Notes under the pieces: generated by a model
Told to the model about the DNA's origin: nothing
Databases searched by the model: none
Seen by the model: only the letters and a program-made list of their open reading frames with translations
Translations under genes and position numbers: made by a program
Assembly (NCBI RefSeq): GCF_058153355.1
Contig: NZ_CM177019.1
Direction: 5' to 3' (one strand)
DNA: 64,000 nt
In this document: in pieces, positions 2,990 to 56,740 of the stretch
How positions within the stretch are numbered: position 1 is the stretch's first letter
Layout of the letters: the number at the start of each line of letters is the position of its first letter

Positions 2990-3967
2990 ATGAGAGTAGA
3001 AAATAATAATGTTTCTGGGCAAAACCATGACCCGGAACAGATTAATTTGATTGATTTACTGGTGCAGTTGTGGCGTGGCAAGATGACAATCATCATCTCT
3101 GTCATTGTTGCTATTGCCCTGGCTATCGGGTATCTGGCCGTTGCCAAAGAAAAGTGGACTTCCACAGCTATCGTTACTCAACCTGATGTGGGGCAAATTG
3201 CTGGTTATACCAACGCGATGAATGTGATCTACGGATCGGCTGTACCGAAAGTCTCCGACATTCAGGCTTCACTTATCGGACGTTACAGCACTGCATTCTC
3301 AGCATTAGCGGAAACGCTGGATAACCAGGAAGAAGCAGAAAAGCTGACCATTGAGCCTACCGTCAAAAATCAGTCATTACCTTTAGCAGTTTCTTATGTT
3401 GGTGAAACACCTGAAGGTGCGCAGAAGCAGCTGGCGAAGTATATCCAGCAAGTTGACGACCAGGTAAATGAAGAACTGGAAAAAGACCTGAAAGACAACA
3501 TCGCGTTGCGTATGAAAAACTTGCAGGACTCTCTGAAAACCCAGGAAGTGGTCGCGCAGGAGCAGAAAGATCTGCGTATCCGTCAGATTCAGGAAGCGTT
3601 GCAGTATGCGAATCAGGCGCAGGTGACAAAGCCACAGGTTCAGCAGACTGAAGATGTGACGCAAGATACGTTGTTCCTTTTGGGGAGCGAAGCGCTGGAG
3701 TCGATGATTAAGCATGAGGCGACCCGTCCGTTGGTGTTCTCACCAAACTACTATCAGACTCGTCAAAACCTGCTGGATATCGAAAGCTTAAAAGTTGATG
3801 ATCTTGATATTCATGCTTACCGTTATGTGATGAAACCGACGTTACCTATTCGTCGCGATAGTCCGAAAAAGGCAATCACCTTGATTCTGGCGGTGCTGCT
3901 GGGCGGCATGGTTGGCGCGGGGATTGTGTTGGGGCGTAATGCTCTACGCGATTACAACGCGAAATAA
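2990..3967 (+). CDS. wzzB: O-antigen chain length determinant (regulator of O-antigen length)
   Basis: ORF 2933-3967; start placed at MRVENNNVSGQNHDPEQI to match known WzzB N-terminus; two TM segments flanking a coiled-coil periplasmic domain. Confidence 0.9.
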   Translation: MRVENNNVSGQNHDPEQINLIDLLVQLWRGKMTIIISVIVAIALAIGYLAVAKEKWTSTAIVTQPDVGQIAGYTNAMNVIYGSAVPKVSDIQASLIGRYSTAFSALAETLDNQEEAEKLTIEPTVKNQSLPLAVSYVGETPEGAQKQLAKYIQQVDDQVNEELEKDLKDNIALRMKNLQDSLKTQEVVAQEQKDLRIRQIQEALQYANQAQVTKPQVQQTEDVTQDTLFLLGSEALESMIKHEATRPLVFSPNYYQTRQNLLDIESLKVDDLDIHAYRYVMKPTLPIRRDSPKKAITLILAVLLGGMVGAGIVLGRNALRDYNAK

Positions 3968-3985
3968 TCTTTGCAGCATTAAAGA

Positions 3986-4023
3986 AAACGGGCAGGGTGG
4001 TGACACCTTGCCCGTTTTTTTTG
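3986..4023. terminator. Bidirectional rho-independent terminator between convergent wzzB and hisI
   Basis: Stem ACGGGCAGGGTG/CACCTTGCCCGT followed by T8. Confidence 0.7.
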
Positions 4024-4063
4024 CCGGATGCGACAACAACATCGCATCCGCTTACCCCGCAAC

Positions 4064-4668
4064 TCACTGATGCCGTTTACGCAGGTTCTCAATCACCGTC
4101 GTTAAATCCAGATCCTGATCCTGCAACAACACCAGCAGGTGATACATCAAGTCAGATGCCTCGTTGGTCAGCTCAAAGCGGTCATGTACCGTTGCTGCCA
4201 GCGCAGTTTCCACGCCTTCTTCGCCCACTTTCTGCGCGATGCGTTTGGTGCCGCTGGCATACAGTTTGGCGGTATAGGAGGTTTCCGGGTCGGCAGTTTT
4301 GCGCTCGGCGAGTAGTTGTTCCAGTTGATACAGGAACAGCCACTGGTGAGCGGTGTTGCCGAAGCAGCTGCTGGTGCCTTTGTGGCAGGTTGGCCCGATG
4401 GGATTCGCCAGCACCAGTAACGTGTCGTTGTCGCAGTCCGGCGCAATACTCACCACATTGAGGAAATTGCCCGACGTTTCGCCTTTGGTCCACAGTCGCT
4501 GTTTAGTGCGGGAGAAAAAGGTGACTTTGCCGCTTTCGATGGTTTTGTCTAAGGCTTCCGGGCTCATATAGCCCAGCATTAGCACTTCGCCAGATACCGC
4601 GTGTTGCACAATCACCGGCATCAGTCCGTCGGTTTTTTCCCAGTCCAGTTCGCGACGTTGTTGTTCTG

Positions 4669-4675
<7 letters not shown>
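4064..4675 (-). CDS. hisI: Bifunctional phosphoribosyl-AMP cyclohydrolase / phosphoribosyl-ATP pyrophosphatase
   Basis: 203-aa ORF, last gene of his operon; overlaps hisF. Confidence 0.95.
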
Positions 4676-6753
<2,078 letters not shown>

Positions 6754-6754
<1 letters not shown>

Positions 6755-7820
6755 TACAGCACTCCTTTCGACGAGGGCAGGGTATCGCCTTCCACGCGGA
6801 TGGCCTGGCGCAGGGTGCGACCAAAAGCTTTGAACAGGCTCTCTACACGGTGGTGATCGTTTTTACCTTTGGTTTTCAGGTGCAGGGTCACGCCCATGGT
6901 GTATGAGAGCGAACGGAAGAAGTGCTCGATCATTTCGGTGCTGAGATCGCCCACGCGCTGGTAGGTAAACTCGGCTTTATATTCCAGGTGCGGGCGACCA
7001 GAGATATCCAGCGCGCAGCGGGCAAGGCATTCGTCCATCGGCAGTACAAAACCAAAGCGGCAAATACCGCGTTTGTCGCCAAGAGCAATTTTTAATGCTT
7101 CGCCCAGCGCCAGGCCGGTATCTTCGACGGTGTGGTGATCGTCGATATAGAGGTCGCCTTTGACGTTGATTTCCATCCGGAAACCGCCGTGGGTGGCGAT
7201 CTGATCCAGCATGTGATCAAAGAAGCCAACGCCGGTGTTAATCTTGCTGCCACCTTCGCGATCCAGCCACACCTGGACGTCAATCTGCGTCTCTTTGGTG
7301 TTGCGCACTACATGGGCGTAACGGTCTCGTTTAGTGAGTTGCTCACCAATCATCGGCCAGTTCAGGGCTTCGCGGTCGTAGCGTAAACCATTAATGCCCA
7401 TGTTTTCCGCCAGTTGAATGTCGGTCGCGCGATCGCCAATCACATAACTGTTAGCGCGATCCATCGCTTGCTCAGCCAGATAACGCTCCACCAGTTTTAC
7501 TTTCGGCTTACGGCAGTCGCACTCATCGGCGGGCAGGTGCGGACAAATCAGCACTTCATCAAACTGCACGCCTTGCGAGGTGAAGATCTGCATCATCAGG
7601 TTGTGCGGGCCATCAAAATCCGCCTGCGGGAAACTTTGTGTTCCCAGACCATCCTGATTAGTGATCATCACCAGTTTGTAGCCCGCTTTTTGCAGCTTCA
7701 GCAGCTGAGGGATCACGCCCGGTTCAAAGGCGAGTTTGTCAAAACGGTCCACCTGAAAATCACTCGGCGGTTCGCTAATCAGGGTTCCATCGCGATCGAT
7801 AAAAAGATACTTCTGACTCA

Positions 7821-7821
<1 letters not shown>
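6754..7821 (-). CDS. hisB: Bifunctional histidinol-phosphatase / imidazoleglycerol-phosphate dehydratase
   Basis: ORF 6754-7824; start trimmed to [13 protein letters not shown]. Confidence 0.95.
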
Positions 7822-10192
<2,371 letters not shown>

Positions 10193-22599: not shown

Positions 22600-22770
22600 G
22601 CCGGAAAAGCAGGCACCTGCCGTCTGAACGGTATCGATCCGGAAGCGTATCTGCGCCATATTCTGAGCATACTGCCGGAATGGCCCTCCAACCGTGTTGA
22701 CGAACTCCTGCCATGGAACGTAGTTCTCACCAATAAATAAGCGTCAATACGGTGCTCCGTTGACGCTGAT
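22600..22770 (+). mobile_element. IS66-family transposase 3' remnant and terminal repeat tip
   Basis: Encodes ...GIDPEAYLRHILSILPEWPSNRVDELLPWNVVLTNK*, matching the C-terminus of the intact IS66-family TnpC at 41197-42768; end sequence resembles the IS66 terminal repeat. Confidence 0.7.
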
Positions 22771-24280
22771 ATGACTTTCCGTGTCAAACCGGAATCTCTA
22801 ATTTTGACGATTTTCTTTTTAGGTTTAATTCCCTGAGGGCGACGTAGCAGTAAATCCGACGGTGAATCACGCTGATATTCGCGGGTTGGATACCGCATTA
22901 CAGAGGTCCGTCATATGAGCCTGCCACTTTCTTACGTCGCGAATCAGCTTTGTTCCGCCGTCGCCAAGCGCTAACGTGGGTTACTCTTGTACCGGGCTAC
23001 GTCGCCTTCAGGGAACTGGTTATTCTCATTTTTTATTTGTGACATTGTGGTTGTTGTGCGACAGACATTGCTATTCGGCCCATATCCCAGATAAAACCCG
23101 CCAGCTCACGTGCAACAGCAACAATTGTAATATTGACATTCTTTCCTTTGGCCTGAAGTTTTCGATACCTCTTACAAAGCCTGAGTTGAGCATCCCATGC
23201 TCTGTCAATGACGGGGCGGGGTAAATTTTCCTGCCTTTTTTGTATTGCCGGACTGATGCGTGCCGGATGACGGTAACTCCACGCTGCCTCGACCAATAGC
23301 TTTCTGGCATAGCTGTTTCCGGCTTTGGTAATGCTGCCCTGATGTCTGCTTCCACCCGATGAATATTCTGATGGCGTGATACCAAACCATGACATCAGTT
23401 GTCGTGGATGTTCAAAACGGGTCAGATCACCCAGTTCAGAAATTAATCCAACCGCAGTAATAAACTGAATCCCTCGCATGGCTTGCAGCGCCTCTACTAC
23501 CGGATACAGCCTCCATTCGGTAACGGCCTCCTTCAGGGCGGATTCCAGCCGTTCACATTGTGCCTGCCGGTCTTCTATTGTACGACGGTGTTCGTCAAAA
23601 GCTAATTGTCGCCAGGGACTTTCGAATGAGTATTTGCTGAGCCAGCGTCGGTGTGCAGGGCCCCAATCTGCTCGCCCGACATAATGGACCCCATGAACCA
23701 GAAGAAACGATTTCAGACGTTGCCTTGCATGCCGTAAATCATCGCGGGCAGATGCCCATGCCCGGGCCAAATCCCGGAATGCCTCATCTTCAATGCCGGG
23801 TACGTAGACAGCAGAAAGATCTCCTGCACGCAGTGAACGCACAAGTCTGATGGCATCACGGCGATCGGTTTTAACCCGCTCCCCCGGTTTTTTCGGGATA
23901 AGTGAGGGGGCGCAGACCATGCAGTCAAAACCGGATTTCACCAGCCGACGATAAAGTCCATAACCACAGGGCCCCGCTTCATAAACGATACTGACCTGCG
24001 ATGACTTTGACCTGAGACGTTTACAAAGATTCTGAATATCAGTAGGTGATGTGCCAATTTTACCCATCAGTTCAACAGGTTCTGAATTGATAGCATAAGC
24101 GACAGTAATCGATTCTTTGTGAACATCTAACCCGACGTACAATGTGTTATTGTTGTTCATGCTGGCCTCCGTGGTGGAAATACCGGGGTGTAGCAACAGC
24201 TCACCCATGCGGCTCTGACAACGATGTTAACCCGCGTTAAATATCCCACGTTGGCCAGCATCTGTCTCACGGAAAGTCAT
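22771..24280 (-). mobile_element. IS110-family insertion sequence, copy 1 (about 1,510 bp, 13-bp imperfect terminal inverted repeats ATGACTTTCCGTG)
   Basis: Identical to copy 2 at 54561-56070 in inverted orientation; ends atgactttccgtg (22771) and cacggaaagtcat (24268-24280). Confidence 0.85.
23033..24160 (-). CDS. IS110-family DEDD transposase/recombinase
   Basis: ORF 23033-24208; start set at MNNNNTLYVGLDVHK; N-terminal RuvC-like DEDD region (GLDVHK, YEAGPCGY, DRRDA) and C-terminal IS110 domain (ITKAGNSYARKLL). Confidence 0.88.
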   Translation of the reverse strand: MNNNNTLYVGLDVHKESITVAYAINSEPVELMGKIGTSPTDIQNLCKRLRSKSSQVSIVYEAGPCGYGLYRRLVKSGFDCMVCAPSLIPKKPGERVKTDRRDAIRLVRSLRAGDLSAVYVPGIEDEAFRDLARAWASARDDLRHARQRLKSFLLVHGVHYVGRADWGPAHRRWLSKYSFESPWRQLAFDEHRRTIEDRQAQCERLESALKEAVTEWRLYPVVEALQAMRGIQFITAVGLISELGDLTRFEHPRQLMSWFGITPSEYSSGGSRHQGSITKAGNSYARKLLVEAAWSYRHPARISPAIQKRQENLPRPVIDRAWDAQLRLCKRYRKLQAKGKNVNITIVAVARELAGFIWDMGRIAMSVAQQPQCHK

Positions 24281-24398
24281 ACTGCCTTACCTTTTCTCAG
24301 GCTATTTTTGCTTTTTTTTGCTTTTCCCCGCCACTTTATGGTGATTATCACATCAATATACATCGATAGATATTAACGTAACTGAAGTGAGGTGAAGC

Positions 24399-25613
24399 AT
24401 GAAATTTGAACGCCATCATGAAATATTGAAACGACTCAGTAAATTCGGTTCTGTAAAAGTATCCGATCTGTCCAATAGCCTCAATGTAACGAAAGAAACT
24501 ATTCGTTCAGATCTTAATGAACTTGCCAGGCTTGGCTATCTGACTCGATGTCATGGCGGTGCTTTTATCGTCCTAGACTCGCTTGATACTATTGCGAAAA
24601 ATGAAATCGCTTATGCGCTTGAAAATTATGATACAGCCCAGGGAATAAAAAAAGGCCACTCAACTATGAAAAGTCAAGTATGCGTTATTGGTTCGTTTAA
24701 TGTTGATATCATCAGTTATTTGCCGAGGCTTCCCACTATCGGAGAATCGCTTCTGGCAAGTAATTTTATATTTTCACCGGGGGGAAAAGGCTGTAACCAG
24801 GCGCTGGCAGCAAGCTTTGCCGATACTGATGTTTATTTCATAACAAAAGTAGGTACAGATCACTTTAGTGATTATGCGATCAACTTTATGAATTCGTCTA
24901 AGATTTATAAAAGTATAATTTATCAAACGAAAGAAACGCAAACCGGAACTGCCACGATCCTTGTTAATGAAGGTACTGGCGATAATGTTATTGCGATCTA
25001 TCCCGGTGCCAACATGACAATGTCGTCCGATGAAATAACTATTCAGAAAGAAGCGATTATTAATTCTGATGTCATACTTCTGCAGCTCGAAACAAATTAT
25101 ACCGCTCTGCAACAAGCGATCACATTGGCGCAAAAAAACAGTATCCCGGTCACTATTAACCCGGCACCCTATAATGATATCGTCAACGAACTTATTCAGG
25201 ATGTTGATTATATCACCCCCAATGAAACAGAAGCTGGTTTACTGTCCGGCATAGACGTACACGATCTTGAATCAGCTAAACGAGCTGCAGAAGCTATCCA
25301 CAATAAAGGGGTAAAAAACACGGTTATCACGCTCGGTAGCAAGGGCTCGCTCGCATTTGATGGCAAAAAATTCATTCATTCGCCAGCGTTTCCAGCGGTC
25401 GTTAAAAATACGGCAGGAGCCGGGGATGCGTTTAACGGCTCTCTGGCATCAGGACTTGCGAAAGGAAAATCACTGGAATCAGCACTGTGTTATGCCAGCG
25501 CCTTTGCATCCCTAGCGGTGGAGACAAGCAATGCTTCCGACATGCCTGAACATGAATCTGTGATACATCGAATTCAGAGTATACATTATCAGCAAACTAT
25601 TTTTACGCATTAA
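24399..25613 (+). CDS. DeoR-type HTH regulator fused to a PfkB/ribokinase-family sugar kinase domain
   Basis: 404-aa ORF; N-terminal 60 aa HTH (VSDLSNSLNVTKETIRSDLNELA), then PfkB motifs (GGKGCNQA; NTAGAGDAFNGSLA). Confidence 0.75.
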   Translation: MKFERHHEILKRLSKFGSVKVSDLSNSLNVTKETIRSDLNELARLGYLTRCHGGAFIVLDSLDTIAKNEIAYALENYDTAQGIKKGHSTMKSQVCVIGSFNVDIISYLPRLPTIGESLLASNFIFSPGGKGCNQALAASFADTDVYFITKVGTDHFSDYAINFMNSSKIYKSIIYQTKETQTGTATILVNEGTGDNVIAIYPGANMTMSSDEITIQKEAIINSDVILLQLETNYTALQQAITLAQKNSIPVTINPAPYNDIVNELIQDVDYITPNETEAGLLSGIDVHDLESAKRAAEAIHNKGVKNTVITLGSKGSLAFDGKKFIHSPAFPAVVKNTAGAGDAFNGSLASGLAKGKSLESALCYASAFASLAVETSNASDMPEHESVIHRIQSIHYQQTIFTH

Positions 25614-25626
25614 GAAGGGACAGAGA

Positions 25627-26385
25627 ATGAATAACACCAAAAAATCACTAAAAGTGCTCTTTATTGGGGAATCCTGGCATATTCATATGATTCATTCAAA
25701 AGGATATGACAGTTTTACCTCAAGTAAATATGAAGAAGGTGCGACCTGGTTACTCCAGTGTCTGAAAAATAGTCAGGTAGATGTCACCTATATGCCAGCA
25801 CATACGGTACAAATTGCCTTCCCTGAAGATGTGGCACAGTTAGAACAATATGATGCCATCGTTATTAGTGATATTGGTAGTAATACTTTCCTGCTACAAA
25901 ATGATACTTTTTATCAGCTTCGCATAAAACCAAACGCTCTCGAACTGATTAAAGAATATGTGAATAACGGTGGTGGGTTATTGATGATTGGCGGCTATCT
26001 CTCATTCATGGGAATTGAAGCAAAAGCCAATTATAAAAATACAGTTCTGGCTGATGTGCTCCCGGTTACGATGTTAGATGGTGACGATCGTGTCGAAAAA
26101 CCAGAGGGTGTTATTGCACAGCCATCACAACCTGAACATCCAGTTATTAAAGGGTTCTCTGAATATCCTTTTTTCCTAGGTTATAACCGGGCGATCGCTA
26201 AAGAAAATGCTGAGGTGGTATTAACAATAAACAACGCTCCATTACTGGTCTTTGGTAACTATCACAACGGGAAAATAGCCTGCTTTATGAGTGACTGTTC
26301 ACCGCACTGGGGTACACAGCAGTTTATGTCCTGGCCGTTCTATACCGCGTTGTGGGTAAATATACTGACTCATATTGCAAGATAA
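25627..26385 (+). CDS. ThuA-like / class I glutamine amidotransferase-like protein
   Basis: 252-aa ORF; family assignment by recognition of the overall sequence pattern, not verified. Confidence 0.55.
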   Translation: MNNTKKSLKVLFIGESWHIHMIHSKGYDSFTSSKYEEGATWLLQCLKNSQVDVTYMPAHTVQIAFPEDVAQLEQYDAIVISDIGSNTFLLQNDTFYQLRIKPNALELIKEYVNNGGGLLMIGGYLSFMGIEAKANYKNTVLADVLPVTMLDGDDRVEKPEGVIAQPSQPEHPVIKGFSEYPFFLGYNRAIAKENAEVVLTINNAPLLVFGNYHNGKIACFMSDCSPHWGTQQFMSWPFYTALWVNILTHIAR

Positions 26386-26441
26386 TAATAATAATGGGGT
26401 AACTCCAGTTACTCCATTTACTATAATAGAAGGATTGATGT

Positions 26442-27407
26442 ATGAAAAAGAATAAGTACTCAACTCCCTTATGGATGCTTGCCACGATTCTTGCGGGTAT
26501 GCTCTCCCCTATGCAATCAGCGGTGAATGGTCAATTAGGTCACTGGTTACAGGATGGTAATGCATGCGCAGTTATCTCCTTTGCCAGTGGTTTAGTCGTG
26601 ATGTTTTTTATTATTATGGCGCGAAAAGAAACCCGGCAACAATTTGCGGCAATTCCTTCTCTGATTAAAAACCGAAAAGTTCCTCTCTGGAACTGGTTTG
26701 CCGGTCTCTGTGGAGCGATGGTGGTATTTTCTGAAGGCGCATCAGCCAGCGCACTCGGGGTCGCAACGTTTCAAACCGCACTGATCTCCGCGCTATTGCT
26801 GTCTGGTTTACTTTGCGATCGCTTTGGTATCGGTGTCGACGAGAAAAAATACTTTACCCCTTATCGCATCATCGGTGCATTATTTGCGGTTATTGCTACG
26901 ATTTTTGTTGTGTCACCTCAGTGGCATTCTACCTCTTTCATCTTACTTGCCATTCTTCCGTTCTTAGCTGGTTTGCTTGCAGGATGGCAGCCCGCTGGAA
27001 ATGCAAAAGTAGCTGAAGCTACGGGATCCATGCTGGTTTCAATCACCTAGAATTTCATCGTTGGATTTTGTGTTTTAGGCACAGCGCTAGCTATTCGTGT
27101 CGCATTAGGGCACGTCACTGTTCAATTACCAGATGTCTGGTGGATGTATCTTGGCGGCCCGCTTGGACTAATGTCTATCGGTTTAATGGCCATTTTGGTC
27201 AGAGGTCTGGGGTTACTGATGCTGGGGGGTGCTTCAACGGCGGGCCAGTTACTGGGATCAGTATTGATTGACGTATTAATTCCATCGCTGGGCAATAGCG
27301 TTTATCTGGTCACGATCATCGGAACACTGTTTGCACTGGTCGGTGCAATTGTTACCACTATTCCGGAATACAGAACCTCGAAAACAATGAAGAAAATGGA
27401 GGTATAA
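26442..27407 (+). pseudogene. DMT-superfamily (YdcZ/DUF606-like) membrane transporter interrupted by an in-frame TAG
   Basis: Two same-frame ORFs (26442-27050, 27144-27407) separated only by TAG at 27048-27050; frame stays open and hydrophobic across the stop. Confidence 0.65.
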
Positions 27408-27483
27408 TCATGAAAGATTATCTACAAACTGTGACGGGCCCCGTCGCCCGTGAAGATATGGGGCTAACACTTTGGATTTGCCC

Positions 27484-28389
27484 CTATATTTCCAGACACC
27501 TGTTATCACTTAACCCATTACTGGCCTGCTGCCGCAGATATTCCCGTGGCGAGCGATAACCCAGTGCACTATGCGGATGCCATTCGTTATAATGCTCGAA
27601 CGCCTCTGCAAGGTTCTTTGCTGCCGTTAACCCGTCTGGTTTAGGCATGATACTGATGTAGTCACGCTTTATCGTTTTCACGAAGCTCTCTGCTATGCCG
27701 TTACTCTCCGGACTCCGCACCGCCGTGTTCTTCGGTTCAAGCCCCAACATCCGGGCAAACTGCCGTGTTTCATTAGCCCGGTAGCATGAACCATTATCCG
27801 TCAGCCACTCTACTGGAGACGCCGGAAGCTCGTTGCCGAAGCGGCGTTCCACCGCTCCCAGCATTACGTCCTGTACTGTTTCACTGTCGAAGCCGCCCGT
27901 AGTGACTGCCCAGTGCAGTGCCTCACGGTCACAGCAGTCCAGCGCGAACGTGACTCGCAGTTTTTCTCCGTTATCACAGCGGAACTCGAACCCGTCAGAG
28001 CACCATCGTTGATTGCTTTCTTTCACGGCCACTTTGCCAGTATGTGCCCGTTTCGATGGCGGTACAGCGGTTTTTCGCTCAAGCAACAGCGCATTCTGGC
28101 GCATGATCCGGTAAACACGTTTGGCATTGATCGCAGGCATACCATCAAGTTCGGCCTGTCTGCGAAGCAGCGCCCATACCCGACGATAACCATACGTGGG
28201 CAGCTCTCCGATAACATGGTGTATACGGAGAAGCACATCCGTATCATCTGAGTGACGGCTGCGGCGACCATCTTTCCAGTCATCGGTTCGTCTGAGAATT
28301 ACGTGCAACTGCGCACGCGACACCCGGAGACAACGGCTGACTAAGCTTACTCCCCATCCCCGGGCAATAAGGGCGCGTGCGCTATCCAC
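27484..28389 (-). CDS. insD: IS2 transposase OrfB (InsD, DDE integrase domain)
   Basis: 301-aa ORF recognised as IS2 OrfB. Confidence 0.9.
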
Positions 28390-28712
28390 TTTTTTGCATG
28401 CCCGTATTCAACGGCTTCTTTAAGGAGTTCATTTTCCATCGTTTTTTTGCCGAGCAGGCGCTGGAGTTCTTTAATCTGCTTCATGGCAGCAGCAAGTTCA
28501 GAGGCAGGAACGACCTGCTCTCCTGCGGCCACAGCAGTAAGACTTCCCTCCTGGTATTGCTTGCGCCAGAGAAATAACTGGCTGGCTGCCACACCGTGTT
28601 GCCGGGCAACAAGGGAGACCGTCATTCCCGGTTCAAAACTCTGCTGAACAATAGCGATCTTTTCCTGTGTAGTACGCCGTCTGCGTTTCTCCGGTCCTAA
28701 GACATCAATCAT
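28347..28712 (-). CDS. insC: IS2 OrfA (InsC, HTH)
   Basis: [41 protein letters not shown]; overlaps orfB in the -1 frame. Confidence 0.9.
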
Positions 28713-29789
28713 CTGCTCTCCAATGACTAGTCTAAAAACTAGTATTAAGACTATCACTTATTTAAGTGATATTGGTTGTCTGGAGATTCAGGGGGCCAGT
28801 CTACACTTCCTCATGAACATCTGTTCAACGATCTTTCCTCTGTTGTGGATGCTCCTTGCTATCCTTTTTCACAACGGCTTGTTGATAAAAAAGTCACGGC
28901 AGAAATCCAGTGGGCATTAAAACACGATCCTTATTGCTGCGCTGATAATATGGACCGCAAACCTATTGAAGATGTGATCTTCGAAATTAATAACTTTATC
29001 TCGCTCGGTGGTCGCACCATTATTGATGCCACAGGGTCTGAGTCTATCGGACGAGATGCGCAGGCATTACGAGAAGTCGCATTAAAAACAGGTCTGAATA
29101 TTGTTGCTTCCTCCGGTCCCTACCTGGAAAAATTTGAAAACCAGAGAATTCATAAAACGGTTGATGAACTGGCGACAACGATCGATAAAGAATTGAATCA
29201 AGGGATTGGCGATACGGATATTCGTGCCGGAATGATCGGTGAAATAGGTGTTTCACCGACATTTACCGAAGCCGAGCATAACAGCTTGCGGGCTGCCTCG
29301 CTGGCACAGATTAACAATCCTCATGTGGCGATGAATATTCACATGCCGGGCTGGCTTCGTCGCGGTGATGAAGTACTCGACATTGTGTTAGGTGAAATGG
29401 GCGTCTCGCCAAATAAAGTCTCTCTCGCACACTCGGATCCGTCAGGAAAAGACGTGGCGTATCAGCGGAAAATGCTTGATAAAGGTGTCTGGCTGGAATT
29501 CGACATGATTGGCCTAGACATTACCTTCCCGAAAGAGGGAATAGCGCCAGGGGTGCAGGAGACTGCCGATGCCGTCGCTCATCTCATTGAGTTGGGATAC
29601 GCCGATCAGCTTGTTCTCAGCCACGATGTCTTCCTTAAACAAATGTGGGCTAAAAATGGCGGTAATGGCTGGGGATTTGTTCCAGATGTTTTTCTGGCCT
29701 ATCTGGCGGAGCGCGGCGTCGATAAAACGATCCTCAAAAAACTCTGTATCGATAATCCCGGACGATTATTGACCGCATAAAACCATTAT

Positions 29790-29812
29790 CCCCCGGCACA
29801 TTGCGCCGGGGG
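29790..29812. terminator. Hairpin between the Php-like gene and the ggt fragment
   Basis: CCCCCGGC acattgc GCCGGGGG. Confidence 0.5.
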
Positions 29813-29819
29813 ATGTCAA

Positions 29820-30150
29820 TTAATACCCCGCCGTTAAATCATCCACCAAGCGCGAGTCGGATGCGCCGTACAACTCACCATCCGACCCAACCATAATGCT
29901 TTGCGTGCTGCCCATCGCCTCATTCAGCGCCACTTTCTGACCTTTTGCATCCAGCAGCTTGAGCGTATCCGGACTAAACCCTTTTCAACACGCAGCTCGT
30001 CCGGCAACCACTGATAGTGGAAACGAGGCGCATTGGTCGCTTCGGCAACATTCATTCCACAATTGATGCTGTTCACCACCATTTGCAGCACGGTAGTGAT
30101 GATCCAGCTACCGGTAACAAAGTGAGTACATAAAGGCCATACTGTCACGA
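29820..30150 (-). pseudogene. ggt: Gamma-glutamyltranspeptidase 3' fragment (frameshifted, 5' end missing)
   Basis: Minus-strand peptides ...IITTVLQMVVNSINCGMNVAEATNAPRFHYQWLPDELRVEKG and, in another frame, ...DSRLVDDLTAGY* match the GGT C-terminus; fragment abuts the ISL3-like element. Confidence 0.7.
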
Positions 30151-31907
30151 ACAGTGCAAAAGTGGCTCTTCCGCAACCTGGGTGAAGATTTTCATGCCAG
30201 TGGACTCATTACCCTCCGCCTAAGTAGTTCAAGTCCGGCTCGACCATACATCTGGCGTATCAGCACCTTCAGGCGATTTACATGACCTTCGACAACACCA
30301 GTACTCCAGCGACTGCTGATTGCCTCACATATAGCCGCAGCATCAGCTTCCATCCCCGCAGCTACGCACCGAAGTTCTGCTGAGCCGCTTTCGTGGACCC
30401 GAGTGAACCAGCTGCTTAGCTGTGATTTATTTTAGGTTTTCAGAATACGGTAGAACTCGAGTACCAGTTGCTGCGCTATTTTCAACTCCGGTTCTTTTTC
30501 ACACATCAGACTAATAAATCGGAAAGCATAATTTTCTTCACCCCTGATTATTCTCCAGGGCATCAACCAGCGGCTTACCCGGGACACTGAAGGAAGTCTT
30601 GCGGCAGTAGTAACCGGTGGGATCCAGCCTTTACGCCATTTGGCAACAGCATCCCTGACGATGGTTTCACTGCCTGTAACCCCCCTGGCCACCATTTCCC
30701 GCCATATCCGGCCGGAGTTATAATTACCACATTCTCGTTGCTCTTTTAACCACTCCCTCCATGGGTCCAGAAGCCCTCGCTTTGGAGGCCTAGTTGACAT
30801 TTCAGGGAATGTTCCTGAACCCACCCAGCGACTGACTGTCACTCGCGACAGGCCTGTAATACGGGATATTTCCCTGAAACTACATCCCTTGTTATGCAGG
30901 GCCATAACCTCTGTCCAACGCTGATGCCGTTTTTTGCGGATGTGCTGTTTAAGGCGTTCCAGACGACGGAGCGATGCTACAGGCACAGATATTTCTGGCT
31001 CAGGTGATTTCTTCAGTGATAACTCTCTGACAACAAGACGTATCAGAGGCATATGTCTGTACATCATTCGTTCAGGCTCATCACCAATATTTTTTAGCAG
31101 GTGCCATCGATCGGCCACCTGTCTGGCCTGAGGTGCACCTTCACGTGCTGCTGTCGCATAGACTCCACTGCGATCACGCGAGACAACCTGTATTTCCGGA
31201 TATTTTCTGAACCAGGTCGCCAGCGTACGCTGATCACGGCCGGGAAGCAGGACGAGGGGACGGTGAGTATCAAGATTGACTATTAACATACCGCAGCAGT
31301 GGCCCCGATGCCACGCCCACTCATCAATACCGACATGAGGCGCGCCTGACTGTTTCGTCTCCGGGGTATTGATAACCCTGCGAAGAAGAGTATCAGCACT
31401 GCAACGGAGACCCGCTGCCGTTGCAGCCCGTTTTCCAGCCTCACCTCCAGCTATTAATCCCAGTTGACGTTGTAAATTTTGTAACGCCTGTGAAGACTGC
31501 TGGTGTGAACCGGCGAAGGGAGCAAGCGACTCGGCAAAAATTTTACGTGAACAAGCCGGGTTACGGCAGTACCAGTGGCGGACGGAAAATACAAGCCATA
31601 GCGTCTGCCCTGAGCAGGGTAGATGCTGTATCCGGCGCCGACGACAACTATGAACAGAGTCGCTACGCTTAAAGCATTCAGGACATTGTGCTGTTTTGCG
31701 TTTTCCGTGGAGATGGAGGGTTATACCGTCAGAGCTAATAATTTGTCGACTGCATCGCCATCCGCAAGGTAACTGTAGAAGTGTCTTAAGAGAGTGCATT
31801 GCGTTGCCCATAACTTAAAACAGCTTAGATCCTTGTTCGCCAGAAAGTTTCATCCATTTTCTTCCACCCAGGTTGCGGAAGAACCACTTTTCATCCGTCG
31901 TTGACAG
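30142..31907 (-). mobile_element. ISL3-family insertion sequence with about 43-bp imperfect terminal inverted repeats
   Basis: Ends ctgtcacgaacagtgcaaaagtgGCTCTTCCGCAACCTGGGTG (30142-) and its inverted complement ending at 31907; encloses the transposase ORF. Confidence 0.75.
30432..31811 (-). CDS. ISL3-family transposase
   Basis: 459-aa ORF with N-terminal zinc-ribbon pattern (CPECFKRSDSVHSCRRRRIQHLPCSGQ...RHWYCRNPACSRKIFAE) typical of ISL3 transposases. Confidence 0.8.
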   Translation of the reverse strand: MGNAMHSLKTLLQLPCGWRCSRQIISSDGITLHLHGKRKTAQCPECFKRSDSVHSCRRRRIQHLPCSGQTLWLVFSVRHWYCRNPACSRKIFAESLAPFAGSHQQSSQALQNLQRQLGLIAGGEAGKRAATAAGLRCSADTLLRRVINTPETKQSGAPHVGIDEWAWHRGHCCGMLIVNLDTHRPLVLLPGRDQRTLATWFRKYPEIQVVSRDRSGVYATAAREGAPQARQVADRWHLLKNIGDEPERMMYRHMPLIRLVVRELSLKKSPEPEISVPVASLRRLERLKQHIRKKRHQRWTEVMALHNKGCSFREISRITGLSRVTVSRWVGSGTFPEMSTRPPKRGLLDPWREWLKEQRECGNYNSGRIWREMVARGVTGSETIVRDAVAKWRKGWIPPVTTAARLPSVSRVSRWLMPWRIIRGEENYAFRFISLMCEKEPELKIAQQLVLEFYRILKT

Positions 31908-32094
31908 ATGTGAAGTATGCGGGAGAAAAAGTGAATATCTAACTGTAATAACTCAGACCGGTACGAGTACTCGGAACGTCTACAATCATTCAGGGCAAAG
32001 TGCTAAAATTTCTCTATCCCGGGATGCCCCTACCAACGCAGCACTCCCGGAGATATCATTACAGCTCTGCAACTGATTTCCGCGACTGAACCGC

Positions 32095-32505
32095 TCAGTT
32101 CCTATCCTTCCAGTTGCCTTCCTGCAGCCCCCCCTCCCTGCTGTATACCCCGGTACCACAACGCGGGCAGCACTTTTCTCCTTCATAATCTTCGTCACAC
32201 ATCACACAAAACCACTTTCTCACCTTCACCGTATAATCCGGAACCGTCATACCCTGCAGATGCAAACGACGGGCCTCTTTCTCTGCCGGGTCAAGCCAGG
32301 TGCATCGCAGCAGGATTTTCTCAGCGACAGTCATCTGGTCATGTTCAAACCACGGTGGTTGTCCGTCATTGCCCCGCTGAAGTGTTAACGGGCATCCACA
32401 GGACACACAGCACAAAACGTCCTGGCGGTTGTGCTTCGCTGCTTCTTTCGCCGTAACAAAATGGCCTTTGCTGTCATTCGCCATATAACAGTTCAGAATT
32501 CGCAT
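32095..32505 (-). CDS. Cysteine-rich putative zinc-binding protein (paralog B)
   Basis: Start MRILNCYMANDSKGH after GGAGGAA RBS; CxxC...WFEH...CxxC-x7-CxxC pattern; tandem paralog of the upstream gene. Confidence 0.6.
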   Translation of the reverse strand: MRILNCYMANDSKGHFVTAKEAAKHNRQDVLCCVSCGCPLTLQRGNDGQPPWFEHDQMTVAEKILLRCTWLDPAEKEARRLHLQGMTVPDYTVKVRKWFCVMCDEDYEGEKCCPRCGTGVYSREGGLQEGNWKDRN

Positions 32506-37012: not shown

Positions 37013-38970
<1,958 letters not shown>

Positions 38971-41196: not shown

Positions 41197-42768
41197 ATGG
41201 ACACCTCACTTGCTCATGAGAATGCCCGCCTGCGGGCACTGTTGCAGACGCAACAGGACACCATCCGCCAGATGGCGAAATACAACCGCCTGCTCTCACA
41301 GCGGGTGGCGGCTTATGCTTCCGAAATCAACCGGCTGAAGGCGCTGGTTGCAAAACTGCAGCGCATGCAGTTCGGTAAAAGCTCAGAAAAACTTCGTGCA
41401 AAAACCGAACGGCAGATACAGGAAGCACAGGAGCGAATCAGCGCTCTTCAGGAAGAAATGGCGGAAACGCTGGGTGAGCAATATGACCCGGTACTGCCAT
41501 CTCCCCTGCGCCAGTCTTCAGCCCGTAAACCGTTACCTGCCTCACTTCCCCGTGAAACCCGGGTCATCCGTCCGGAAGAGGAATGCTGCCCGGCCTGTGG
41601 TGGCGAACTCAGTTCTCTGGGATGTGATGTGTCAGAGCAACTGGAGCTTATCAGCAGCGCCTTTAAGGTTATCGAAACACAACGTCCGAAACTGGCCTGT
41701 TGCCGGTGCGACCATATCGTGCAGGCTCCGGTGCCTTCAAAACCCATTGCACGCAGTTATGCCGGAGCGGGGCTTCTGGCCCATGTTGTCGCTGGAAAAT
41801 ATGCAGACCATCTGCCGTTATACCGCCAGTCAGAAATATACCGTCGTCAGGGCGTGGAGCTGAGCCGTGCCACACTGGGGCGCTGGACAGGTGCTGTTGC
41901 TGAACTGCTGGAACCGCTGTATGACATCCTGCGCCAGTATGTGCTGATGCCCGGTAAAGTCCATGCCGATGATATCCCCGTTCCGGTCCAGGAGCCGGGC
42001 AGCGGTAAAACAAGGACTGCCCGGCTGTGGGTCTACGTTCGTGATGACCGTAACGCCGGTTCGGAAATGCCTCCGGCGGTCTGGTTCGCGTACAGCCCGG
42101 ACCGGAAAGGTATCCATCCACAGAATCATCTGGCCGGTTACAGCGGAGTGCTTCAGGCCGATGCTTACGGTGGTTACCGGGCGTTGTACGAATCCGGCAG
42201 AATAACGGAAGCCGCATGTATGGCTCATGCCCGGAGAAAAATCCACGATGTGCATGCAAGAGTGCCCACCGACATCACCACGGAAGCCCTGCAGCGTATC
42301 GGTGAACTGTATGCCATCGAGGCAGAGGTCCGGGGCTGTTCAGCAGAACAGCGTCTGGCGGCAAGAAAAGCCAGAGCCGCGCCACTGATGCAGTCACTGT
42401 ATGACTGGATACAGCAACAGATGAAAACACTGTCGCGTCACTCGGACACGGCAAAAGCGTTCGCATACCTGCTGAAACAGTGGGATGCACTGAACGTGTA
42501 CTGCAGTAATGGCTGGGTGGAAATCGACAACAACATCGCAGAGAACGCCTTACGGGGAGTGGCCGTAGGCCGGAAAAACTGGCTCTTCGCGGGTTCTGAC
42601 AGCGGTGGTGAACATGCTGCGGTGTTGTACTCGCTGATCGGCACATGCCGTCTGAACAATGTGGAGCCAGAAAAGTGGCTGCGTTACGTCATTGAACATA
42701 TCCAGGACTGGCCGGCAAACCGGGTACGCGATCTGTTGCCCTGGAAAGTTGATCTGAGCTCTCAGTAA
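41197..42768 (+). CDS. IS66 family transposase TnpC (Orf3)
   Basis: 523-aa ORF with leucine-zipper N-terminus, CxxC zinc motif, DDE domain, C-terminus ...[10 protein letters not shown]. Confidence 0.9.
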
Positions 42769-54490: not shown

Positions 54491-54552
54491 AAAAATCTAA
54501 GCTCAGAAAACGGATTAAAGTAAAAATCTAAGCTCAGAAAACGGATTAAAGT
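54491..54552 (+). repeat. Perfect 31-bp tandem duplication (2 copies) abutting the left end of IS110-family copy 2
   Basis: aaaaatctaagctcagaaaacggattaaagt at 54491-54521 and again at 54522-54552. Confidence 0.9.
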
Positions 54553-54560
54553 AAGGCAGT

Positions 54561-56070
54561 ATGACTTTCCGTGAGACAGATGCTGGCCAACGTGGGATAT
54601 TTAACGCGGGTTAACATCGTTGTCAGAGCCGCATGGGTGAGCTGTTGCTACACCCCGGTATTTCCACCACGGAGGCCAGCATGAACAACAATAACACATT
54701 GTACGTCGGGTTAGATGTTCACAAAGAATCGATTACTGTCGCTTATGCTATCAATTCAGAACCTGTTGAACTGATGGGTAAAATTGGCACATCACCTACT
54801 GATATTCAGAATCTTTGTAAACGTCTCAGGTCAAAGTCATCGCAGGTCAGTATCGTTTATGAAGCGGGGCCCTGTGGTTATGGACTTTATCGTCGGCTGG
54901 TGAAATCCGGTTTTGACTGCATGGTCTGCGCCCCCTCACTTATCCCGAAAAAACCGGGGGAGCGGGTTAAAACCGATCGCCGTGATGCCATCAGACTTGT
55001 GCGTTCACTGCGTGCAGGAGATCTTTCTGCTGTCTACGTACCCGGCATTGAAGATGAGGCATTCCGGGATTTGGCCCGGGCATGGGCATCTGCCCGCGAT
55101 GATTTACGGCATGCAAGGCAACGTCTGAAATCGTTTCTTCTGGTTCATGGGGTCCATTATGTCGGGCGAGCAGATTGGGGCCCTGCACACCGACGCTGGC
55201 TCAGCAAATACTCATTCGAAAGTCCCTGGCGACAATTAGCTTTTGACGAACACCGTCGTACAATAGAAGACCGGCAGGCACAATGTGAACGGCTGGAATC
55301 CGCCCTGAAGGAGGCCGTTACCGAATGGAGGCTGTATCCGGTAGTAGAGGCGCTGCAAGCCATGCGAGGGATTCAGTTTATTACTGCGGTTGGATTAATT
55401 TCTGAACTGGGTGATCTGACCCGTTTTGAACATCCACGACAACTGATGTCATGGTTTGGTATCACGCCATCAGAATATTCATCGGGTGGAAGCAGACATC
55501 AGGGCAGCATTACCAAAGCCGGAAACAGCTATGCCAGAAAGCTATTGGTCGAGGCAGCGTGGAGTTACCGTCATCCGGCACGCATCAGTCCGGCAATACA
55601 AAAAAGGCAGGAAAATTTACCCCGCCCCGTCATTGACAGAGCATGGGATGCTCAACTCAGGCTTTGTAAGAGGTATCGAAAACTTCAGGCCAAAGGAAAG
55701 AATGTCAATATTACAATTGTTGCTGTTGCACGTGAGCTGGCGGGTTTTATCTGGGATATGGGCCGAATAGCAATGTCTGTCGCACAACAACCACAATGTC
55801 ACAAATAAAAAATGAGAATAACCAGTTCCCTGAAGGCGACGTAGCCCGGTACAAGAGTAACCCACGTTAGCGCTTGGCGACGGCGGAACAAAGCTGATTC
55901 GCGACGTAAGAAAGTGGCAGGCTCATATGACGGACCTCTGTAATGCGGTATCCAACCCGCGAATATCAGCGTGATTCACCGTCGGATTTACTGCTACGTC
56001 GCCCTCAGGGAATTAAACCTAAAAAGAAAATCGTCAAAATTAGAGATTCCGGTTTGACACGGAAAGTCAT
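54561..56070 (+). mobile_element. IS110-family insertion sequence, copy 2 (inverted relative to copy 1)
   Basis: Ends atgactttccgtg (54561) and cacggaaagtcat (to 56070); internal sequence identical to copy 1 over all inspected ORFs. Confidence 0.85.
54681..55808 (+). CDS. IS110-family DEDD transposase/recombinase
   Basis: Same 375-aa protein as copy 1; GGAGG RBS at 54671. Confidence 0.88.
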   Translation: MNNNNTLYVGLDVHKESITVAYAINSEPVELMGKIGTSPTDIQNLCKRLRSKSSQVSIVYEAGPCGYGLYRRLVKSGFDCMVCAPSLIPKKPGERVKTDRRDAIRLVRSLRAGDLSAVYVPGIEDEAFRDLARAWASARDDLRHARQRLKSFLLVHGVHYVGRADWGPAHRRWLSKYSFESPWRQLAFDEHRRTIEDRQAQCERLESALKEAVTEWRLYPVVEALQAMRGIQFITAVGLISELGDLTRFEHPRQLMSWFGITPSEYSSGGSRHQGSITKAGNSYARKLLVEAAWSYRHPARISPAIQKRQENLPRPVIDRAWDAQLRLCKRYRKLQAKGKNVNITIVAVARELAGFIWDMGRIAMSVAQQPQCHK

Positions 56071-56740
56071 ATCAGCGTTAATGGAGAATCATATTGATGC
56101 TTATTTATTGGTGAGAACTACGTTCCATGGCAGGAGTTCATCAATACGGTTGGAAGGTTATTCCGGCAGTACGCTCAGGATATGGCGCAGATACGCTTCC
56201 GGATCAATGTCGTTCAGAAGGCAAGTGCCGATAAGCCCATACAACAGTGCACTGCGCTCGCCGCCGAAGAACATAAAGTTTTTATTTCCGAGACAGATGG
56301 CACAAAGGGCTTTTTCCGCGGCATTATGTCTGCCTCCGCCTGACCGTCAACACTGTAATAACAGAGTGCGCCCCACTGATTCAGTACACAGCTGAACCAT
56401 TCTCCCAGTCTGGATTTTTGGATAGCGTGGCATTTTTCTCCACCATGCATGCAGTGAGTCCAGTAACAGTTTGCTCTTCTTCTGCCTGACCACAAGATGT
56501 GCTGGACTGGTAAACGATGGGGATACCTGCTTACGCGAGAGCAATAAGTGGCTGGCCACAATTCTCGGTACAAAACTCTGCTGAATAGCAGCGATTTTCC
56601 CAGCGTGGTGCGTCGTTTGCATTTTACTGGTTCTAAGTTAACAATTATCTGTTCACTAATGACTACTCTAAAAACTTGTATCAGGACTATCACTTATTTA
56701 AGTGATATTGGTTGTCTGGAGATTCAGGGGGCCAGTCTAT
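56071..56740 (-). mobile_element. Composite IS remnant: IS66-like tnpC 3' fragment plus IS2-like terminal fragment
   Basis: 56071-56400 encodes an IS66 TnpC C-terminal tail on the minus strand, about 85-90% identical to the remnant at 22600-22770; 56650-56740 is an IS2-type terminal repeat (GGGGGCCAGTCTA). Confidence 0.65.

Follow-up and report, generated by a model that had tools for sequence, protein, structure and literature searches.

In Salmonella enterica (STM3547–STM3550) and in the Citrobacter freundii complex, four genes encoding, in this order, a DeoR-PfkB kinase (rikA), a GATase1-like protein, a DMT transporter, and a phosphotriesterase (PTE)-family protein form a cluster next to ggt, the gene for gamma-glutamyltranspeptidase (GGT). 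The kinase has recently been characterized in Salmonella, and the cluster is conserved in Citrobacter, Escherichia, Budvicia, and Proteus (PMC13432705); the cluster itself is poorly understood. The S. enterica gene order is yhhW-yhhX-yhhY-rikA-GATase-DMT-PTE-ggt-yhhA-ugpQ, and S. bongori presents the same order plus a small insertion between the PTE gene and ggt. Three Citrobacter species carry a convergent, full-length ggt (580 aa) directly after the PTE gene, with yhhA-ugpQCEAB beyond it, as in K-12, while S. enterica subsp. diarizonae presents the same start of the PTE-ggt arrangement within the stretch examined; the Citrobacter and diarizonae loci were chosen by a PTE-protein scan of species-representative genomes, followed by tblastn with GGT. 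E. coli K-12 carries yhhZ-yrhA-IS1-yrhD-yrhB at the rikA slot, and its ggt (b3447) is intact, with yrhB downstream. A comparison of a K-12-type ggt locus (L006) with S. enterica (L095) placed yhhZ (Hcp-like tssD)-yrhA-IS1-yrhD-yrhB exactly where the rikA cluster would be, suggesting that one cassette may have been replaced by another between yhhY and ggt. A further, partial ggt in E. coli is already known, with thousands of RefSeq genomes carrying it as an annotated pseudogene; PGAP labels it [quoted passage not shown] in all strains inspected (e.g., 042, 720632, and 98198). The literature yielded no account of the junction between the PTE gene, this partial ggt, and the insertion sequence beside it, or of a link between STM3550 and ggt; ISEc38, the closest relative of that insertion sequence, was found only in lists of mobile elements.

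The window analyzed here, a stretch of 64,000 nt from contig NZ_CM177019.1 (assembly GCF_058153355.1), carries gnd-ugd-…-his operon-…-yeeA in its left third and cobU-cobS-cobT-ldtA at its right end. The island between the yeeA side and the cobU side contains a block (24304–30119, plus strand) that is collinear with the yhhY-…-ggt region of Salmonella and Citrobacter, as indicated by blastn, gene order, and family matches. This block includes rikA (24399–25613; DeoR-PfkB kinase, PfkB ribokinase), a GATase1-like gene encoding an amidotransferase (25627–26385), a DMT transporter pseudogene (26442–27407), and a PTE-like homologue of STM3550 split by an IS2 (27410–27472 and 28804–29780), which is the order of genes that defines the rikA/STM3547–STM3550 cluster. 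The PTE-like gene, the last of the four, matches the phosphotriesterase family (PF02126, E = 7.8e-45) and is convergent with a 3′ remnant of ggt (hereafter ggt′), and a hairpin separates the two stop codons, as in Salmonella and Citrobacter. The same block in another E. coli locus (L001, positions 3851–8324, equivalent to 24304–30113 of the window) gave a single unbroken 4.47-kb blastn alignment with ~76% identity to the three Citrobacter species and S. enterica subsp. diarizonae; this alignment extends from 95 bp upstream of rikA across the PTE gene and the intergenic hairpin and ends exactly at the end of ggt′. In Salmonella and Citrobacter, a complete ggt (580 aa) has yhhA-ugp as its neighbor, while the island copy retains the last 103 codons and lies near cobU; the E. 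coli block is found away from the yhhY-ggt-yhhA-ugp locus and accompanied by a ggt stub only.

Two genes of the block are visibly damaged in this strain. The IS2 (27473–28803, minus strand; NCBIfam IS2 TnpB, 706 bits), whose junctions were placed by comparison with the uninterrupted L001, lies after about codon 21 of the PTE-like gene; it is flanked by a 5-bp target duplication, CACTT (27468–27472 and 28804–28808), and the first codons of the gene (MKDYLQTV...) are kept at 27410–27472. This IS2 is a later simple insertion into the PTE-like gene. The DMT transporter gene presents an internal stop that leaves ORFs of 202 and 87 aa, and the same defect is annotated in two other E. coli loci (L001 and L086); the rikA cluster therefore appears to be decaying in E. 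coli, and, with the internal stop in the DMT gene and the PTE gene split by IS2, in this strain.

The ggt′ remnant (29820–30119, minus strand) was delimited by blastn, Pfam, tblastn, codon analysis, and the PGAP annotation, and is non-functional; its stop codon is the reverse complement of 29820–29822. Against K-12 ggt, blastn returned 272/295 identities (92%, E = 1e-122) with one single-base gap, and the frame-repaired peptide matches PF01019 (G_glu_transpept, an Ntn-hydrolase family) at profile positions 420–509 of 512 (E = 3.6e-20; 72.7 bits, with a cut-off of 27). The resemblance to ggt that the initial annotation had proposed from the letters alone is strongly supported by database searches, at a level far above chance, and the full-length ggt genes of K-12, Citrobacter, and Salmonella all align with ggt′. 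The remnant shares with K-12 ggt 92% nucleotide identity over the last 295 nt and the C-terminal motif ...VDDLTAGY*, but the K-12 gene is intact and at a different locus, while ggt′ adjoins the PTE gene and lacks residues 1–477. Only the 3′ end of the gene is present, as initially annotated, although the count of about 110 codons given at that time is reduced to ~103; ggt′ corresponds to GGT residues 478–580 of 580 plus the stop codon (tblastn alignment, residues 477–580).

Two lesions were found within ggt′. The internal frameshift noted in the initial annotation was traced by blastn and codon analysis to a 1-nt deletion in a T-run at 29982–29985 (4 T as compared to 5 T in native ggt), which splits ggt′ into two frames and leaves no intact reading frame; in a three-frame translation, the C-terminus (...GELYGASDSRLVDDLTAGY*) lies in one frame and the preceding stretch (...IITTVLQMVVNSINCGMNVAEATNAPRFHYQWLPDELRVEKG) in a different one. 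The second lesion is an in-frame 6-nt deletion at ~30113/30114, located between GCTACCG direct repeats, beyond which ggt′ continues for 6 nt more, to 30119. Because it begins at about residue 478, ggt′ has no large subunit, and it does not encode a full-length precursor with an autoprocessing site and catalytic threonine; Thr391, the self-cleavage and catalytic threonine of E. coli GGT, lies inside the absent residues 1–477. With these residues missing and the frame broken, ggt′ can encode no enzyme. A tblastn search with the 580-aa GGT found no other ggt sequence in the whole 64-kb window, including the far side of the insertion sequence, in line with the earlier statement that the rest of the gene is absent there.

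The insertion sequence next to ggt′ is a defective ISEc38-like element of the ISL3 family (1764 bp, 30143–31906, minus strand), delimited by homology to independent copies, its inverted repeat, Pfam, and NCBIfam. It is ~95.5% identical to annotated ISEc38 copies from E. coli plasmids, with homology limits at query positions 24–1787, and comparison with copies in four independent contexts placed the unit between TGTCACGAAC... at 30143 and ...CGTCGTTGACA at 31906. In independent ISEc38 copies (plasmid pUTAK-18-1 [L091] and L003–L005), the common sequence extends 21 bp past what look like the canonical ends, GGCTCTTCC...GGAAGAACC, which results in the 1764-bp unit. The terminal inverted repeats consist of 43-nt imperfect arms (30142–30184 and 31865–31907) that are 81% complementary and whose ends coincide with those of the independent copies. 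The transposase presents both ISL3 domains (PF01610, DDE_Tnp_ISL3, and PF14690, Zn_ribbon_ISL3, the latter an N-terminal zinc ribbon) and scores 259 bits against NCBIfam NF033550 (transpos_ISL3; cut-off 180). The local element has the terminal inverted repeats and the 540-codon transposase frame (30192–31811) of ISEc38, with ~95.5% DNA identity over 1764 bp; unlike ISEc38, its frame is broken by a premature stop, Q460*, at 30429–30431 and carries 37 other amino acid changes, so that no intact transposase is encoded. The Q460* stop is common to three E. coli chromosomal copies (L001, L002, and L086) and is remarked as "internal stop" by PGAP; its presence in the chromosomal copies of other strains indicates that this ISEc38-like copy is old and dead. 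Also unlike ISEc38, this copy occupies a single, fixed chromosomal position across thousands of genomes and represents a fossil, not an active element.

The arrangement of PTE gene, ggt′, and ISEc38-like element was found in 2520 of the 5426 complete E. coli genomes, i.e., about half (at least 80% coverage of a 1101-nt query); the ggt′ junction is old. The closest described copies of the remnant, in E. coli 042 (EC042_RS28025) and 720632 (CXX37_RS00985), present 0 mismatches to the window over 323 nt and have the same neighbors, a phosphotriesterase-related gene on one side and an ISL3 pseudogene on the other; further out, the window differs from 042 by the IS2 in its PTE gene, where 042 has a different, frameshifted IS3-family element, and from both strains by the inversion of the whole island. 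Across E. coli, ggt′ copies differ by ≤~1.6%. One sampled variant, in strain H2, has a different apparent breakpoint; the candidate alternative truncation point in H2 and in strain 22872 was rejected, as it results from a secondary, later ISEc23 insertion inside ggt′. The ggt query was matched in 5425 of the 5426 genomes, with every best place listed spanning a full-length annotated ggt, and genomes carrying ggt′ have two ggt matches; the working ggt of the cell should be an intact gene at another chromosomal position.

The source of ggt′ is most likely a genome of the Escherichia lineage distinct from the present E. coli ggt allele, as judged from distances over only 294 nt. Over this common stretch of 294 nt, the identity of ggt′ is 92.5% with K-12 ggt, 80–82% with the ggt of Citrobacter and S. 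diarizonae, and 83–86% with that of S. bongori and S. enterica; K-12 ggt is itself ~84% identical to the Citrobacter and S. diarizonae genes. The island PTE protein shows 85–88% identity to its Salmonella and Citrobacter counterparts. Fourteen of the 22 substitutions that separate ggt′ from K-12 ggt fall at third codon positions, and 12 are synonymous and 10 non-synonymous, a pattern suggestive of purifying selection in another lineage during part of the divergence and of neutral pseudogene decay during another part. The searches found no donor genome whose ggt ends in a near-identical copy of ggt′; with the frame-repaired peptide as query, a protein search returned short fragments only, with up to 94% identity, and PTE homologues left a gap between ~99% (the E. 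coli island) and 88% (S. bongori and Citrobacter), with one exception at 92%. This 92% match (P0127) was rejected as a donor, as it sits in the same island beside cobU. The small difference among ggt′ copies indicates that ggt′ had diverged from native ggt before the island spread among E. coli strains, and points to a single relocation that would have preceded this spread.

It is very probable that ggt′ is an inert passenger pseudogene that marks the right breakpoint of a 4.5-kb rikA-GATase-DMT-PTE segment relocated from the yhhY-ggt position to the cobU island. At the right edge, ggt homology ends at 30119 and the ISEc38-like element begins at 30143, after a 23-bp filler, AAGTGAGTACATAAAGGCCATAC (30120–30142, no strand). 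This filler did not align with native ggt of E. coli, Citrobacter, or Salmonella and is absent from independent ISEc38 copies; in a short-word blast against the window and more than 90 loci, it matched only the same locus in other E. coli. The initial annotation had the remnant ending exactly where the ISL3-family element begins; ggt′ does end beside this element, but the 23 bp between them mean that it does not end exactly at the IS end. In canonical strains, an IS66-family element terminates at the left edge (…TAACGCTTAC, a GTAAGCG inverted repeat in reverse complement), 13 bp left of the start of homology. This site (L001 3828–3850, represented in part by 24286–24303 of the window) contains a short filler of no assigned origin, as at the right edge. 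The block thus adjoins IS ends of two different families and is flanked neither by copies of one IS nor by target-site duplications.

According to the relocation reading, the 4.5-kb block would have been excised from its ancestral position between yhhY and ggt, with a ggt-side cut ~310 nt ahead of the stop codon of ggt that would have carried the tail of the gene and the intergenic hairpin along. The block would then have landed in the mobile-element-rich island beside cobU, and ggt′ would have acquired the frameshift and the 6-nt deletion afterwards. Since both block edges lie within 13–23 bp of IS termini, an IS-mediated rearrangement is the most likely mover or trimmer of the block, through capture between two elements, cointegrate resolution, or adjacent deletion, although this step is inferred. 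Equally compatible with these data, the whole ggt may have been captured and then trimmed by the ISEc38-like element; the 23-bp filler is a slight argument against a deletion that begins right at the terminus of the IS.

Simple insertion of the ISEc38-like element into an intact gene was excluded in the initial annotation in favor of an IS-associated deletion, and the first part of that claim stands, as the element has no target-site duplication and the missing 5′ 1.4 kb of ggt are not found across it. The second part changes in character, since ggt′ is read here as the edge of a relocated 4.5-kb block and not as a resident gene truncated in place. A deletion in situ, in which a complete second ggt would have resided on the island beside the PTE gene until the ISEc38-like element inserted and the 5′ 1.4 kb and sequence beyond were lost, is rather unlikely. 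It would account for the proximity of the IS terminus to the end of ggt homology (23 bp) and for the lack of anything ggt-like across the element, while a junction sequence of 23 bp that belongs to neither ggt nor the IS would be unexpected if the deletion started at the IS end. It would also fit the flanks of the element, as the 8 bp on each side (GGCCATAC and GATGTGAA) differ. ISL3-family elements typically generate an 8-bp target-site duplication, and the nearby IS2, with its clean 5-bp duplication, shows that intact insertions are recognizable in this region. However, seven ISEc38 copies in four independent plasmid contexts presented no consistent target duplication (one context has a possible 5-bp GTACT), so that a missing duplication at the ggt′ junction is weak evidence and not diagnostic of a deletion. 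No longer version was found in the 5426 complete E. coli genomes: a 2825-nt Citrobacter PTE+ggt query, run in distant mode, had no place with ≥80% coverage, i.e., a PTE gene beside a full-length ggt was found in 0 of 5426 genomes. The undeleted arrangement that the initial annotation proposed to look for in related strains does exist in relatives, but at the native ggt locus of Salmonella and Citrobacter; as an E. coli arrangement it was rejected.

A second alternative, that ggt was truncated by illegitimate recombination when the block was captured and that the ISEc38-like element inserted alongside later by chance, appears doubtful, and less probable than deletion in situ. The 23-bp filler that separates ggt′ from the element would fit such an origin, and so would the comparable 13-bp filler on the left, which lies beside an element of another family. 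A chance insertion is harder to reconcile with the lack of a target duplication around the element, with the fact that none of the sampled genomes has an IS-free version of the ggt′ junction, and with the 213 bp to the right of the element (31907–32119), which are specific to this locus and could be related neither to the filler nor to paralogous islands. These paralogous islands, found elsewhere in E. coli and containing zinc-ribbon and inovirus-Gp2-family genes, lose homology left of 32120 and have in turn been truncated by other IS elements (e.g., IS66 in L087); they were therefore rejected as a source for the pre-insertion sequence to the right of the element.

We also considered a function for ggt′ on the island. 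Between the convergent PTE-like gene and ggt′, a G+C-rich hairpin (29788–29814, minus strand) was identified as an inverted repeat and terminator-like site; it has 12 pairs, nine of them G-C, is predicted to be an intrinsic terminator on the ggt strand but not on the PTE strand, and is present at the equivalent position in the Citrobacter and Salmonella alignments. Given this orientation, transcripts running out of the PTE gene could in principle continue as RNA antisense to the 3′ end of native ggt mRNA (complementarity of 92% over ~300 nt), or a small residual ORF could be expressed, and the retention of ggt′ in ~2500 genomes could be taken to support such co-option; if true, the antisense RNA would let the island modulate glutathione and gamma-glutamyl metabolism in trans. 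We regard this as very improbable, as scans of the region returned no promoter-like site and no Rfam match, the substitutions, the frameshift, and the secondary IS insertions in ggt′ resemble neutral decay, the upstream PTE gene is itself split by IS2 in this window, and retention is accounted for by linkage to the rikA cluster. The least probable reading, that ggt′ is the only ggt of the organism, destroyed by the insertion sequence so that the strain has no gamma-glutamyltranspeptidase, fits the lack of another ggt in the 64-kb window but can be practically dismissed, as native ggt lies at a different chromosomal locus (yhhY...ggt-yhhA-ugp), genomes with ggt′ present two ggt matches (5425/5426 genomes match the ggt query, with the best places listed full-length), and ggt′ differs by 7.5% from the native allele. 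The best reading is that ggt′ has no function and persists through its linkage to the rikA cluster.

As a gene, ggt′ is a routine pseudogene remnant, of modest worth as a mark of provenance. In that capacity, it indicates that the rikA-STM3550 cluster of E. coli originated at a ggt-adjacent locus that is still present in Salmonella and Citrobacter, and that a copy of the cluster probably reached the cobU-side island once, ahead of its dissemination, as part of this island, across about half of E. coli. In genome annotation, a second "ggt" match in E. coli should be taken neither as a paralogue nor as a loss of ggt.

The island in this window has the opposite orientation to that of canonical E. 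coli. The reversed stretch of ~30 kb is bracketed by two inverted copies of an IS110-family element (22612–24294 and 54548–56229; 1683 bp, 98.9% identical), so that the rikA block is turned toward yeeA/his/gnd and away from cobU; a match of ≥80% in one place to the stretch from 18000 to 42000 was found in none of the complete E. coli genomes of the collection. The IS110-family copies encode a 391-aa "RNA-guided transposase" (NF033542). Further along the island, 37079–38880 contains a homologue of IS21-family istA (340 aa, NF033546) and an adjacent 260-aa ORF that is presumably istB, at the position occupied by IS100 in strain 98198, and 41197–42768 is ~96% identical to an IS66-family tnpC. Downstream of this tnpC, as in 98198, the island encodes a 798-aa dynamin-like protein (with a weak, sub-threshold match to the CrfC family) and an RdcB-family protein.
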